In this document: in pieces, positions 6,645-21,694 of the stretch | Layout of the letters: the number at the start of each line of letters is the position of its first letter | How positions within the stretch are numbered: position 1 is the stretch's first letter | Assembly (NCBI GenBank): GCA_000004695.1 | Contig: CM000152.2 | Location: 1,504,001 to 1,568,000, forward strand | Reading direction: 5' to 3' | Source: Dictyostelium discoideum | Lineage: Eukaryota | DNA length: 64,000 nucleotides | Position numbers and translations under genes: made by a program | Notes under the pieces: generated by a model | Databases searched by the model: none | What the model saw: only the letters and a program-made list of their open reading frames with translations | Told to the model about the DNA's origin: nothing

Positions 6645-7235
6645 ATGAAAAATTTTAAAGCCAAAATCATAACAGCAAAACAAAATGTTATGGAAAAAAC
6701 TGCAAAAAGAGAAAATACTCTTGAACCAGATGAGATGAAAGAATTAGAAAAGGTATTATATTTTATTTTATTTTATTTTATTTTATTTTAATTGGTTTGC
6801 TTTGAAAAAAAAAAAAAAATAAAAAAAAAAAGATTTTTTTATTTTTTTTATTTTTAAAAATAATTTCAGAAAATAAAAAAATAAAATAAAATAAATGACT
6901 AACTCCCCCCCCCCCCCCCATTAAAAAATTAATTTTAAATTTAATAATAGAAAACAACAGAAACAAAAGATTTCCTCAGAAAATTAACAAAATCAGTTGA
7001 AAAGGAAACTTTAAGTTCTGGTGTATCAATTCAAGATGGTACAGAATTAGCTGATAATTTCCTTGATTATAGTGTTCATGTTAGAGATAATCAGAGTGAT
7101 TTAGTTATTCTTTCTGGTATTTTATCAAAAATTGGTGAATTTCAAGCTGGTTTTGAAGATTTAAAATCAAAACTTGTATGTAAAAAAATATATATTTAAT
7201 ATATTTATGAAATATATTTCTAACTTTTTATTATA

Positions 7236-7301
<66 letters not shown>

Positions 7302-8700
7302 GAATTCATCATTAATTAATGATGTTAGTGATCCATTAAAATCAATTATTAAAACTGAATTAAAACAAGCAAAAGAATCAAAGAGAGAATATGATAGAGT
7401 TAGAGTTGCATTTGATGCACATTTATCAGAGTTGGCAAATTTAAGAAAACAAAAGAATGTTAAACCACCAAAGATTCAAGAGAGTGAAGAGGAATGTGAA
7501 AGATTACGTACAAATTTTGAACGTGTTGGAATTGATACTACATGTTTATTACGTGATACCAATGTGATCACAGAGTTTGAAACAGTTGAGAAACTTTGTG
7601 ACTATTTGGATAGTTATCATACATTCTTTCAAAAGGGATACAGATGGTTGGCACAAATGATACCGGATATCTACGAGTATCGTCTATACGTTGAGAAGAG
7701 AAAAGCAGAATTGGAGAAATCAAAAGTACGTATTAGTATGATGGTTTCACCACAGAAACAACAAGCGGACTCCTTGTCAAAAACCAAATGTTTTGGCGAG
7801 GATCTTTCCGTACTTTTGAATAGAGAAGGCTCAACATTACCATGGTTCATCGTTAGGGCATTCCAAGCCATCAGAAATCATATCGCAACAGAGGAGGGTT
7901 TATTCCGTCTCTCTGGTACCAAGAGAATCATCTACGAATATAAACAAAAAATCGACGAAGGTAAAGAATACAATCTCTCTGAGATTTTGGATATCCATGT
8001 GGTTTGTAATCTTGTTAAATTATATCTTAGAGAACTTCAACCTGAGCCATTATTAACCTATAGTCGTTATAATGAGCTTATCGACACATGCAACATTGAA
8101 GACCAAAATCAAAGAGTCGATAAGATTTCAAAGATTCTCTCCTCCCTACCAAAACATTATTACACATTATTACATCATTTAATTCATCTTTTAAGTCAAA
8201 TCGCATCTCAACCAAAATCAAAGATGGGTCCTGCAAATTTGGCTACTGTCATTGGTCCAAACATTTTAATTTGTCAAACTGATGTCGTTCTTGAAGATAT
8301 TGCTTTGGGTAATATGGTCGTAACAACTATCATTCAAAATTTCGATAGAATATTTGGTGGTCCACCACTTTTACAACAATCTGTACCTGATACCTATGTA
8401 CCACCACCAAATAATACTCGTAATAATAGTGTTAATAATTTTAATAATGTACAACCATCTTCTTTTTCTGCTTCAACCTCACGTTCTATAAATTTAAATA
8501 AATCTACAAATAATCCAAATATCAATGATGATAATAATAATAATAATAATATAAATAATTCCGATGACGAACCATATGATCCAAATGCACCACCAATTTA
8601 TTCTGGTGTACCAATGAGAGGTAATATAAAACATTCAGATTCTTGTTCAACTTTAGGTGATAGTTTTGATGAAGGTGATGCTGTAGAATTATCAGACTAA
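6645..8700 (+). CDS. BAR-domain RhoGAP (GRAF/oligophrenin-like Rho GTPase-activating protein). Exons 6645..6752, 6951..7175, 7303..8700.
   Basis: The RhoGAP core is 'FRLSGTKRIIYEYKQKID...LVKLYLRELQPEPLLTY...MGPANLATVIGPNIL', which carries the arginine-finger and MxxxNLAxVFGP motifs. An N-terminal helical BAR-like region is encoded by three exons. Donors are GTATTA (6753) and GTATGT (7176); acceptors are AG at 6949-6950 and 7301-7302. The frame shifts 0->0->1, consistent with intron lengths of 198 and 127 bp. Confidence 0.75.
6905..6919. repeat. Poly-C tract (C15) inside intron 1 of the RhoGAP gene.
   Basis: 'aactccccccccccccccccatt' can be read directly from the sequence. It sits in a genome-like context that is otherwise about 90% AT in introns. 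Confidence 0.9.
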
Positions 8701-8775
8701 ATAAATATCCCAATTCAACAAAACTGACTAAAATAAATAAATATCTTTTCATAAATATATACATATAAAATAAAA

Positions 8776-10462: not shown

Positions 10463-11327
10463 ATGTCTTTCAGAGGTGGTCGTGGTGGTTTTGGCGGTGG
10501 TGATCGTGGTGGCCGTGGAGGTAATTATCATTAAAAAAATAAAAAATAAAAAATAAAATCATAATTAAATTACATTATTATTAACTTGGATTTTTTAAAA
10601 TTTAGGTGGTCGTGGTGGTTTTGGTGGTGGTGACCGTGGTGGCCGTGGCGGTTTTGGCGGAGGCCGTGGTGGTGGTCGTGGTGGTTTTGGTGGTGATCGT
10701 GGTGACCGTGGTGGTTATGCTTCAGGTGAAAATATTGGTATGTATTTATAATTATTAAATTTTAAAAAATACATATGCATATTAACCAAAATCTTTTTTT
10801 TTTATTTTATTTTTTTTTTATTAGAAATTGGTGTTTTCTCTCATGTTTGCGAAGAACAAATTGTTTGTAAATTAACAGCTACTGAACAAGTACCAAAATT
10901 CAATTGTAAAGTTTTATCATCAAGTAAAAATACCATTGGTTCAGTTGATGAAATTTTCGGACCAATCAATAAAGTATTTTTCAGTGTTAAATTAGACAGC
11001 GGTGTCCAAGCTACCTCATTCAAAGAAAACGATAAAATCTTTGTTGATTCAAACTCTGTATTACCAATTAAAATCTTCCTCGAAGAACCAAAACCAATTG
11101 CTAAAGTACCAAAAACACCAGGTGCTGGTGGTGCCGGTAGAGGTGGTCGTGGTGGTGCTAGAGGTGGTTTCGGTGGTGGTCGTGGTGGTGGTGCCGGTAG
11201 AGGTGGTTTCGGTGGTGGTCGTGGTGGTTCTAGAGGTGGTTTCGGTGGTGGTCGTGGTGGTGGTTCCGGCTTCGGTGGCCGTGGTGGTTCTAGAGGTGGT
11301 CGTGGTGGTGGTCGTGGTGGTTTTTAA
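10463..11327 (+). CDS. H/ACA snoRNP subunit GAR1, with Gly/Arg-rich (GAR) domains at both ends. Exons 10463..10520, 10606..10737, 10825..11327.
   Basis: The core 'EIGVFSHVCEEQIVCKLTATEQVPKFNCKVLSSSKNTIGSVDEIFGPINKVFFSVKLDSGVQATSFKENDKIFVDSNSVLPIKIFL' matches the GAR1 family. Both flanks carry RGGRGGFGGG repeats. Donors are GTAATT at 10521 and GTATGT at 10738. Both introns are phase 1. Stop TAA at 11325-11327. Confidence 0.8.
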
Positions 11328-11904
11328 ACAAATTCAAACAATAACAGTAGCGACAATTTAGTTAATCATTAACAACTTTATACAAATATACATCATAAAT
11401 CTCAAAAAAAAAAACATCAAGAATCAACTAATCAATCAAAAACAATTTTAACATGGAAAATAATATTCACACACACAAACTCACTTTTTAAAACTTTTTT
11501 TTTTATAACCTTAAACCAAAAAAAAAAAGTCTCAAACAAACAAACACACCAAAACAATCTAACTTAACCTTAAAAATACTTTTTAATTAAAAAAAAAAAA
11601 TAAATAAAAAAAAAAATAAAATAAAAAATAAAAAAAAATTTTAAAAAATATATAAACACTTTTTTTTTTTTTTTTTGATTATCGTCCAATCAAATTATTT
11701 ATTTCACACACCACAATCTATTTTTTATTTTTTTTTTTTTTTTTTTATTTTTTGGTTTAAGTGGGTGTGGTAATGTAAAATTTCAAAAATGAATTTTTTT
11801 TTTATTTTTTTATTTTTTTACATTTCTGTTAATATCTAATAAATTCAATTAATATATTTTAATATAAATATTTTAGTAGTTGTAATAAATCTAAAATTCA
11901 AGAA

Positions 11905-18195: not shown

Positions 18196-18208
18196 AATTA
18201 AAAATATA

Positions 18209-18270
<62 letters not shown>

Positions 18271-18379
18271 TAAAAAAATAATTAATAATAATAATCAAAA
18301 TGACAAAATGAATAATAGAAATAATAATTAAGAATTAATAATAATAAGAACAATAATAATTTACAAATCCAATAATATT

Positions 18380-18415
<36 letters not shown>

Positions 18416-18628
18416 CCATTAATTTCGCTCTGCAAAAAAAAAAAAAAATCAAGAGGTCTTTTAATTTTTTTTTTTTTTTCGAAATCTGATTTTGTTTTAA
18501 AAAAGGTTTCTTCTTAGTTTTTTGGGGAAAGACCGTCTTTTTTTCTTTTTTTTTTAATGTAAAATAAAGTTTTTTTTTTTTTTTTAAAATTTTGTACTTC
18601 ACATAATTTCTTTTTTTTTTTTTATAAT

Positions 18629-19623
18629 ATGATTAGATTTTTATTAAATAGTTTAATTGATGAAGAAGATAATAATAACAATAGTAATAGTAATAATAAT
18701 AATAATAATAAAATAAAAAAAGAAAAAGAAGATAATGAAACATTTGAATTAGTAAAAAATGAATTTTTAAAATTAATTAAAAGTATTGAAGAAACTAAAG
18801 AATCATTATACCAATATGTAAATAACTTTCAAGATGTATTTTTAAATCAAACTAATATTTACAATACTATAAAGAATAATTTTAGAGATGATCATCCACT
18901 TTATCATTATTCAAATCAAGTATTAGTAAATATTTCCAATGTTTTTAAAAATAGGAAAACCAATTTCGAAAAGAATATAGAATCAATTTTAAATTACTTG
19001 GACAAAGCAAATTATTTAAAATTAAAATTAGATAATTTAAATCAATTCCATACAAATATTATTAATAATAATAATAATAATAATCAAACTAATTTAAATA
19101 AAAAAATAATTGAAGAGTATTTAGATTTAAAAGTTTTACTATTTAGTGAACTAAAATCATTTTTTGATGAAAGAGTAACATCTTATGATTTACCTTTAAT
19201 TAATATTCAAATGATTTTTAATATTGTTTACGATGAAATTGGTATGGTTTTTAAAAATAGTTTAGATTTTTTAAAACAAACTAATACTATAAATATAACA
19301 ACTTTAAAAACTGTTTTAAATAGACCAAGTGGTTTTTATTCAACTTCAAAAATTAATAATAATAATTATAATAATAATGATTTTATTTTACCTCCTCATT
19401 TAAATGATTATTCTTCTTATCAAGAATATCAAAAAAAATTAAATCAACCACCACAACCACAACCTCCACAACATATAAATCAACAACAACAACAACAACA
19501 ACCAAATCAAACTCTTAATCAACAAAATCATCATGAAACTCAATTACGACCCCAAAGACAACCACAAAACCAACCAAATAATTTCACTATGTATCCTTTT
19601 GAATTGTACCAACAACCACAACC

Positions 19624-19693
<70 letters not shown>

Positions 19694-20296
19694 CGGCAGC
19701 AACCTTACCCAAGGAGAACTCCAGTTTTCCCAAGGCCTACTCCAACAATGCCCACAACAACTTCACCTCAATCCTCGCAATTACCAATTCAAGAAATATT
19801 GGTATCATGCCCAATTTGTTCAAACCAATATAGAGAAATAGAAATTAATGAGCATATTGATATCCATTTAAATGAACAATCACAAATTAATAATAATAAT
19901 AACAATAACAATAACAATAATATTATTAATGGAAATGGTAATAATAATTATCAAGGATCATACGATTTAATAGAGCCTATGGATACCCCAACTACCACAA
20001 CTACAACTACCACAACTACTACAGCATCCCATATAATTGAGCCTCTTTCTTATGACCAACAAAACTCAAATAGTGAATCTAAACCAACTAAAAGGAAGAA
20101 TAAAAAAAATTTACTAAAGAAACTAGTTAAGTTTCTCTCAAGATCAAAGAAATCAAAACCTAAAAAATCAAAAAGAATTAAAAAAAATACAAACACTCCA
20201 AATATAATTGATATTACAAGTGTTGATACAAGTAACAACATTGTTGATAATAACAAACCCATTGAGTTTGATAAAACTCCTATCAATTTCAACGAC

Positions 20297-20337
<41 letters not shown>

Positions 20338-20418
20338 TAATAACAATAATAACAATAATTTTCCAGGAAGTAGTAATAATTATTTAAACGCAAGCAATTC
20401 TACAAGACCTCAATCACC

Positions 20419-20507
<89 letters not shown>

Positions 20508-21694
20508 GATCATATCAATTACTAAAGGAAAAAGAGAATAAAATCAAAGTAAATTTAGTAGATAAATTGGTTCGATTTGAATTTAAAATGCCAACAATAT
20601 TTGAACCATCATTAGAAAATTATTTATTCGATTATGAAGCACATAAAAATAGTAAGTAAAATATAATAAAGCAAACTGTTAAATATATTAAAGAAACTAA
20701 TAGATTATTTTTAAAATTAGTGTGGGATAAAAAGCCATTAAAATTGGTGAAAACCCACAAACATACAATAAGATATGTATTAACAATACAAGTTTCAAAA
20801 ATAAGTGGTATTGTTTATTCATCTACCTATTTTATAAATAAACCTCTTAATTTATCAAGTCAATTTGTTAGGTCATCTTCATTTTCAGCATTTTCAGTGG
20901 ATGGAAAACAAATGCTTTGTGATTCAAAATTAATTAAAACCAATACAAATCCAATCTATAAATTATTTTATAATAAACCAATATCAAATTATTTATTAAA
21001 ACAAGAAATTGAAGTAGACTTATTTAGTGTAAAATTAACTCAAATTGATATTGGAGATGGTGATACCACCGATGTTGTTGTCGTTGAACCACTTTCAATT
21101 CAAGAAAGAGATTTCTATCTTATACAAACTTATCCACCAACTGAAGAATTTAAACAATTCATAGCCTTTAATAAACTATCACCTCAAATCACATCAAATG
21201 GTGAAATGGAATCTTTATTATGCTTTGCATACAGAGTTACATTATACATTAGGAAAATTGAATATTTAAAAGAAGCTGGTGATCAAGAACCAATGGAAAC
21301 TATAAGATCGGGTAAAGCAAATTGCACATCTTTTTCAATTTTATTCAGTTCAATAATGAGATTTAATGGTATACCATGTAGAACTATTATCGGTAGAAAT
21401 GCTGGTGCATTTAGAAGTGAAATGGGTCATGCCAAGAATGAATTCTATCATCCATCCTATGGTTTTATTCCAGTGGATTGCTCATTAAAAGATAACTCAG
21501 TTTACAATACTCATTGTTTTGCTGATCATTCTGGTGATCTTTTAGTACTAACTGTTGAAAATATTACTTGTAAAGAATTTAATCAAAATGAAAAATTATC
21601 TCTCATTCTACCAGCAACTCTTCATTCTTATAATCAAGCAAGACCACCAGTTTTTACTCCTTTTACTGATAATTTTTCAATATTAAATTGTTGA
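18629..21694 (+). CDS. Large N/Q-rich protein with a UBZ-type zinc finger and a C-terminal transglutaminase-like (papain-fold Cys-His-Asp) domain. Exons 18629..20651 and 20721..21694.
   Basis: 'CPICSNQYREIEINEHIDIHL' is a UBZ-like C2H2/C2HC finger. The C-terminal 'GKANCTSFSILFSSIMRFNGIPCRTIIG...H...D' is the core motif of the transglutaminase-like superfamily. The two ORFs are 60 bp apart and join through a 69-bp intron (GTAAGT at 20652, AG at 20719-20720, phase 1), giving '...HKN|M|WDKKPL'. Confidence 0.6.

Follow-up and report, generated by a model that had tools for sequence, protein, structure and literature searches.

We describe here a two-exon gene at positions 18629-21694 on the + strand of a 64,000-nucleotide stretch of Dictyostelium discoideum DNA (assembly GCA_000004695.1, contig CM000152.2, positions 1,504,001 to 1,568,000), referred to below as the window. 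The gene runs from ATG to TGA and encodes a 998-residue protein in which an N-terminal BAR domain of the amphiphysin/BIN type is joined, through a long linker carrying a CCHH zinc finger with UBZ-type spacing, to a C-terminal transglutaminase-like module of the 3ISR type, whose Cys, His and Asp residues occupy the positions of a catalytic triad. Our preferred explanation, to which we assign a probability of roughly 60%, is that this architecture serves to put Cys-His-Asp domains on curved membranes by means of a BAR dimer. The BAR domain would dimerise and dock on curved membranes, an established behaviour of amphiphysin, BIN and Rvs proteins, the long linker would let the two Cys-His-Asp domains reach membrane-associated substrates, and in these membrane-associated proteins the domains would cleave or remodel bonds of the amide or isopeptide kind. 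The finger, a paralogue-specific add-on, would probably recruit the protein to partners that carry ubiquitin.

A public annotation already contains the gene model, with no domain recorded for it, and the fold and superfamily of the C-terminal module were also known before. All three domains are individually well known, and what is new is their union in one polypeptide. As far as the literature that we searched shows, the combination of BAR and transglutaminase-like domains, and with it the UBZ-like finger of this paralogue, is undescribed. We found no BAR-plus-transglutaminase-like protein described there, and no paper with both UBZ and transglutaminase-like, which agrees with an original prediction, made by a model from the letters alone, in which a UBZ finger together with a transglutaminase-like fold was not recognised as a described combination. 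If the BAR domain truly puts a Cys-His-Asp enzyme on curved membranes, then the family would represent membrane-associated enzymes that modify proteins and form a class not yet explored. Dictyostelium is a genetically tractable model in which the unusual architecture can be tested with ease, and the finger-bearing paralogue offers a cheap and concrete way to ask if an enzyme of transglutaminase fold can be directed to ubiquitin. Should the finger bind no ubiquitin and the domain be inactive, this would be just another multidomain protein specific to one lineage. What ties it to ubiquitin is a short motif that stays below threshold and occurs in a single paralogue, and no question of long standing depends on it.

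Gene model and splice junction

The window is low in G+C (21%) and crowded with N, Q and T homopolymer runs, both of which are typical of Dictyostelium. Two open reading frames (ORFs) are found at this locus on the + strand, ORF1 at 18629-20659 (676 residues) and ORF2 at 20720-21694 (324 residues). They share one frame, and the single in-frame stop that separates them, a TAA at 20657-20659, falls inside a 69-bp phase-1 intron at 20652-20720. The intron begins with GTAAGT and ends with TTAG (GTAAGT...TTAAAATTAG), and its G+C content is 14%, compared with 23-28% in the flanking exons. When it is excised, an open 998-residue frame results, made up of exon 1 (18629-20651, residues 1-674 and the first base of codon 675) and exon 2 (20721-21694, the second and third bases of codon 675, residues 676-998 and the stop). 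The split codon reads A from exon 1 and TG from exon 2, creating Met675.

The original prediction had joined the two ORFs through this intron into a protein of about 1000 residues, and four independent lines of evidence, from comparison, annotation and modelling, agree that 18629-21694 is one two-exon gene. We searched for homologues with a HMMER scan of 1.84 billion representative sequences, using the spliced C-terminal 372 residues as the query, and obtained 220 hits. The best full-length matches begin aligning 10-25 residues upstream of the splice junction, and the junction itself, EAHKN-M-WDKKPLKLVK, fits the family motif H-[KR]-x-[ILMF]-W-[DG]-x-K-x-F-K-L-V-K in the homologue alignment with no indel, the splice-made Met675 sitting in the I/L/M/F column. 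A phase-1 intron is found at the identical codon in two annotated paralogues, XP_003288151.1 of D. purpureum (HRK-I-FG) and KAN0026913.1 of D. citrinum (HKK-K-WD). A second NCBI assembly, GCA_054883475.1, annotates a 998-residue product from DNA identical to 18629-21694 of the window. In an AlphaFold2 (AF2) model, the helix formed by model residues 43-50 contains the junction, and the block around it has a predicted local distance difference test score (pLDDT) of ~93.

We also enumerated GT..AG pairs with donors in 20400-20659 and acceptors in 20660-20899. The 69-bp intron was the sole in-frame pair that yields the annotated 998 residues, and it alone also restores the family motif, so alternative pairs were ruled out. 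A sequencing error at the TAA was likewise ruled out, with two assemblies and two contigs from the Logan short-read collection (L001 and L002) identical base for base. An ORF on the - strand at 20050-20355 was rejected as a low-complexity translation of the AAT repeat.

We give almost no credence to the view that the locus comprises two separate genes, or a pseudogene broken by a stop codon. It is true that the ORFs follow each other in the same frame with one TAA between them, that the only public contigs found for the stretch (the two Logan contigs) retain the intron, and that the ORF of the spliced transcript was not found in the protein collection. ORF2, however, lacks an ATG upstream of its residue 65, both the folded module and the similarity to the family start in exon 1 and continue over the junction with no indel, and the intron has a canonical GTAAGT donor and AG acceptor at a position kept in both annotated paralogues. 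The 998-residue model was called in an independent assembly, and conserved residues are intact throughout.

By exact look-up, neither the 998-residue product nor the 676-residue product of ORF1 is in the protein collection, and a word-indexed search with the C-terminal query matched only the window's own ORF2. The two Logan contigs begin at 20483 and 20485, just inside the 3' end of an (AAT)27 run (20426-20506). Because contigs start within this run, exon 1 is fragmented in such short-read assemblies, which may be the reason why its product is missing from protein collections. The 3066-bp gene, repeats included, is identical between the window and GCA_054883475.1. Just upstream of it, window positions 18196-18628, an intergenic region of A/T tracts, show a 7-bp length difference between the two assemblies, from which the window represents a different assembly or strain, and their eIF2-gamma regions also differ.

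The C-terminal transglutaminase-like module

The folded module spans residues ~657-998 (20597-21691, intron included). It begins ~15-20 residues before the intron, so that the intron splits it, which corrects the C-terminal region of ~320 residues first proposed. In the AF2 model, a short helical lead-in is followed by a beta-sandwich (residues ~681-782) and a transglutaminase-like alpha/beta core (residues ~801-953). The beta-sandwich lies directly N-terminal to the core and forms one unit with it, as in 3ISR, a putative transglutaminase-like cysteine protease of Cytophaga hutchinsonii. The model was made with a 78-sequence alignment and has a mean pLDDT of 84.8 and a predicted template modelling score (pTM) of 0.84; prediction from the single sequence of the C-terminal 372 residues was unusable (pLDDT 29).

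The assignment of the fold, which the original prediction had based on a core motif (GKANCTSFSILFSSIMRFNGIPCRTIIG, residues 872-899) and candidate His and Asp residues downstream, is borne out by several methods. Pfam Transglut_core (PF01841) matches residues 827-928 (21176-21481) with 75.4 bits against a cut-off of 23. A profile of the 78 sequences finds Pseudomonas aeruginosa TgpA (6g49, E 1.7e-5) and 3ISR (E 8.6e-4) in PDB. Foldseek places 3ISR at the top (E 1e-14, with template modelling scores of 0.53 and 0.67), then TgpA, TglA, TG2, TG3, factor XIII and LapG, and further structural neighbours are PeiW and CPR-C4. A phmmer search of PDB with the module gave no match, NCBIfam gave no family, and a fold search of a viral library returned nothing relevant.

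The predicted nucleophile is Cys876 (codon 21323-21325), the predicted catalytic His is His911 (21428-21430), and the third predicted triad residue is Asp927 (21476-21478). The corresponding columns of the family profile align with the triad columns of TgpA 6g49. Cys and His are both kept in 18/18 aligned modules and are nearly invariant (>=90%) in the 78-sequence alignment, and the G-x-C-x-x-F-S motif around Cys876 is retained. The Asp927 column holds Asp or Glu in most members, Asn in XP_003288151.1 and KAN0026913.1, and Cys in the Heterostelium album protein XP_020438368.1. Part of the family, in which Cys and His are kept but the triad Asp is replaced by Asn or Cys, may be catalytically altered or inactive.

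Since peptide, isopeptide or amide bonds are the targets of all the characterised neighbours (LapG, PeiW, CPR-C4, peptide:N-glycanase and the transglutaminases), the module would most likely have the chemistry of a cysteine hydrolase or transamidase. Peptide:N-glycanase itself (Png1/NGLY1) is a distant structural neighbour only, with other accessory domains and neither BAR nor UBZ.

The module could instead be a binding domain with no catalytic role, like that of yeast Cyk3 or that of erythrocyte protein 4.2, which would make the protein a BAR-anchored scaffold. This seems to us possible, if on the unlikely side. Cyk3's transglutaminase-like domain has no catalytic Cys, and the loss of the triad Asp in the nearest paralogues points in the same direction. 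Against it, the paralogue studied here keeps all three triad residues together with G-x-C-x-x-F-S, and Cys and His are conserved across the aligned modules.

Bacterial proteins of the 3ISR type (~350 residues) share with the Dictyostelium module the beta-sandwich and transglutaminase core as one unit. They are stand-alone and apparently secreted, with no BAR domain, linker or finger, and their identity to it is ~15-25%. Two of them (P0013 and P0018) start, by eye, with a hydrophobic leader, whereas the Dictyostelium module is the C-terminus of a BAR protein. Stand-alone bacterial modules were found at 368 loci, overwhelmingly in Planctomycetota (Gemmataceae, Isosphaeraceae and Pirellulales) and Verrucomicrobiota, and other amoebozoan proteins carry the same module behind different N-terminal regions. 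This bacterial distribution and the patchy occurrence among Amoebozoa suggest that the module passed horizontally between soil bacteria and amoebae. Among 80 neighbourhoods of bacterial homologues (L007-L086), no family recurs except kinases and sulfatases. Both are abundant in Planctomycetota genomes, so the neighbourhoods give no functional clue.

The BAR domain, the linker and the dictyostelid family

The original prediction described the N-terminal two-thirds of the protein as N/Q-rich, which is true of the linker but overlooked a BAR domain at residues 33-218 (18725-19282). A hidden Markov model (HMM) of the N-terminal domain of the family, built without the query, scores 91.7 bits against the query over exactly these residues. 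The family profile finds amphiphysin (9bqx, E 4e-6), BIN1 (2fic, E 3e-3) and BIN2 (E 0.06-0.12) in PDB in near full-length alignments, and hhalign against amphiphysin and BIN1 gives a probability of 88.9% (E 2.4e-6, 148 columns). A word-indexed search with the alignment of this domain found nothing. We recognised no secretion signal in the 998-residue protein.

Like amphiphysin, BIN1, BIN2 and Rvs167, the protein has its BAR domain at the N-terminus, with a disordered, proline-rich linker behind it. In those proteins the C-terminal effector is an SH3 domain, whereas here it is the transglutaminase-like module. Compared with amphiphysin and BIN, the tip of the Dictyostelium BAR domain, between helices 2 and 3, is shortened and bears a run of N.

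The low-complexity linker extends over ~440 residues (~219-656, 19283-20596), is rich in N, Q, P and T, and contains the runs Q23, N11, T11, N21 and N27, as seen in the sequence and in its entropy profile. A proline-rich stretch within it with PxxP (RRTPVFPRPTPTMP, residues 362-375, 19712-19753) could be an SH3 ligand. A polybasic stretch further on (KPTKRKNKKNLLKKLVKFLSRSKKSKPKKSKRIKKN, residues 485-520, 20081-20188) is a candidate nuclear localisation signal, but could also be an acidic-lipid- or calmodulin-binding segment; if it were a nuclear signal, the reading of the zinc finger discussed below would change.

The best eukaryotic matches have a common architecture, with an N-terminal domain of ~200 residues, a P/Q/N-rich linker, at the same place in all family members, and the C-terminal module. 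The species represented are D. discoideum, D. purpureum, D. citrinum, Heterostelium album, Acytostelium subglobosum and Synstelium polycarpum. Neighbour-joining places the query on a long branch within the BAR-bearing dictyostelid clade, and on these sequence comparisons the 998-residue protein is a divergent paralogue in a dictyostelid family of BAR-linker-transglutaminase-like proteins. XP_003288151.1, KAN0026913.1, D. discoideum KAM9958835.1 and H. album XP_020438368.1 share the BAR-like domain, the linker and the module with the query, at 27-33% identity in the module, and differ from it in having no finger. We treat the first two as paralogues because their loci show no synteny with the window. 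There is no paralogue of the gene within the window itself.

In the databases, family members are called 'hypothetical', 'transglutaminase-like domain-containing' or 'hydroxyproline-rich glycoprotein'. That these labels are uninformative is probably explained by the BAR domain being missed in single-sequence Pfam scans. The name 'hydroxyproline-rich glycoprotein', given to XP_020438368.1, looks like a misannotation that apparently arose from the proline-rich linker. Some members depart from the common plan. KAM9958835.1 and D. purpureum XP_003289970.1 have one BAR domain followed by two full beta-sandwich and transglutaminase-like modules in tandem, the latter protein with an additional short fragment of a third. 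A 1493-residue protein of S. polycarpum continues after BAR and module with DBC1 and LAIKA (Pfam 134 and 74 bits), and represents either one more fusion or a pair of gene models that were merged.

The zinc finger and the reading of the whole protein

The finger, CPICSNQYREIEINEHIDIH, lies in the linker at residues 394-413 (19808-19867) and has the pattern CPIC-x11-HIDIH. Its ligands C394, C397, H409 and H413 are spaced C-x2-C-x11-H-x3-H, as in UBZ fingers (C-x2-C-x11-H-x3-[H/C]). C394 and C397 are the only cysteines within the first 740 residues, and the pattern C-x2-C-x9-14-H-x3-[HC] never arose when the exon-1 product was shuffled 200,000 times. A six-frame scan of the window gave one other match to the loose pattern, at 11296-11355 on the - strand (CRYCYCLNLFKNHHDHHHDH), which is low-complexity and His-rich and which by inspection we judged spurious and probably meaningless. 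Based on the shuffles, the unique cysteines and the spurious nature of the other match, we consider the finger an ordered island in the disordered linker and not a chance occurrence.

Its best gapless matches in PDB, over 23-30 residues, are the UBZ fingers of RAD18 (5vf0_B and 2mre_B, E 0.03-0.04) and WRNIP1 (3vhs_A, E 0.13). These are UBZ4 fingers with CCHC ligands, and what they have in common with the Dictyostelium finger, besides the gapless alignment, is the ligand spacing and the H-x-D motif of the helix, in which D411 occupies the conserved UBZ Asp position. RAD18- and WRNIP1-type UBZs use a binding mode other than the D-A-L motif. CCHH ligands define the UBZ3 class, and the motif by which Pol eta and FAAP20 contact ubiquitin is D(-4)-A(0)-L(+3) (PMC4267625). 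The Dictyostelium finger shares the CCHH ligands of the Pol eta UBZ but has not kept its D-A-L motif, and its host protein, compared with these UBZ proteins, is not a DNA-repair factor. A UBZ3- or UBZ4-like finger, as first claimed, is thus upheld in its ligands, its spacing and its gapless RAD18 and WRNIP1 matches, and not in its scores, in any Pfam UBZ model (none matched in a scan of the 998-residue protein) or in D-A-L. Ubiquitin targeting by this protein would be plausible.

Several results weigh against the reading that we prefer. For the gene model, support for the splice consists of comparative evidence and the existing annotation. For the N-terminal domain, Pfam BAR (PF03114) is not reached by the query at E<=10 in a single-sequence scan, nor at E<=1 by nine homologues that bear the domain. 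For the module, the final ~40 residues of the AF2 model have a pLDDT of only 54-75, and the loss of the triad Asp in the closest paralogues suggests that catalysis may be dispensable in the family. For the finger, the UBZ matches in PDB are sub-threshold (E 0.03-0.13), classical C2H2 fingers reach a similar E 0.005-0.02 if a 1-residue gap is permitted, and the D-A-L positions read D411-N415-S418. Finally, the finger is present in 0 of the 150 best homologues.

The finger may be a generic C2H2-like knuckle, Di19-like or classical-like, that binds nucleic acids or other proteins and is no UBZ, a reading to which we give considerable weight without favouring it. The Pfam matches, all sub-threshold, are led by zf-Di19 (E 0.033) and include RNF220, zf-C2HC_2 and Zn-C2H2_12, and in PDB the RNF4 RING and classical C2H2 fingers score equal to or better than the UBZs. 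The missing Pol eta-type D-A-L motif (cf. PMC4267625) would also fit a knuckle of this kind, as would the polybasic stretch, which resembles a nuclear localisation signal and lies 70 residues downstream. On the other hand, the RAD18 and WRNIP1 UBZs align gapless, whereas classical C2H2 fingers, which have x12 spacing, need a 1-residue gap against x11, and a single isolated finger is typical of UBZs but unusual for DNA-binding C2H2 arrays.

Because it is absent from all 150 best homologues, we take the finger to be an add-on of this paralogue. A word-indexed search with the finger segment gave no candidates, and look-ups via two identical neighbouring proteins returned only GCA_054883475.1 and no finger-bearing orthologue. 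Across Dictyostelia, the partner conserved with the transglutaminase-like module is the BAR domain and not the finger. The fusion of finger and module was not encountered in those 150, and 'ubiquitin-directed peptidase or transamidase', as first suggested, is therefore a hypothesis that concerns a single lineage-specific addition and not the message of the entire architecture.

For this paralogue by itself, we think it unlikely that the protein is mainly a ubiquitin-directed enzyme, whether a deubiquitinase-like isopeptidase, a ubiquitin deamidase or a transamidase, with the UBZ selecting its substrates. Cys876, His911 and Asp927 at triad positions would suit such an enzyme, as would papain-like-fold neighbours that cleave peptide or isopeptide bonds (LapG, PeiW and CPR-C4) and a finger with UBZ spacing, H-x-D and gapless UBZ matches. 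However, a finger confined to one paralogue cannot explain the function of the family, its UBZ assignment is sub-threshold, ~260 disordered linker residues separate it from the catalytic module, and there is no ubiquitin-processing enzyme among the structural neighbours of the module.

Our preferred explanation, a BAR dimer that would hold Cys-His-Asp domains on curved membranes, has a parallel in yeast cytokinesis, where Cyk3 (SH3 plus transglutaminase-like) acts with the F-BAR protein Hof1, so that there too a protein of the BAR family brings a transglutaminase-like domain to a membrane site. A TG-Hof1 fusion made by engineering is functional (PMC4758748), and by analogy the slime-mould family resembles a natural version of it. 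The resemblance to Cyk3 is confined to function and architecture. Cyk3 has an SH3 domain and no catalytic Cys, whereas the Dictyostelium protein has Cys876 and, by Pfam scan, no SH3; Hof1 is an F-BAR protein, whereas the Dictyostelium domain is of the amphiphysin type. In its boldest form, which we rate as a long shot, the protein would be a eukaryotic ubiquitin-processing enzyme of a new kind, a BAR dimer holding a transglutaminase-fold isopeptidase, deamidase or transamidase on curved endocytic, phagocytic or autophagic membranes with the UBZ-type finger directing it to ubiquitinated cargo, and the family would be a natural fusion of the Hof1/Rvs167-Cyk3 partnership of yeast cytokinesis.

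A separate gene with BAR and RhoGAP domains lies ~10 kb upstream, at window positions ~6760-8730 on the + strand (positions 1-1969 of the corresponding GCA_054883475.1 locus, L005). Pfam BAR, BAR_3 and RhoGAP are recorded for it in the NCBI assembly, and its sequence is unrelated to that of the 998-residue gene.

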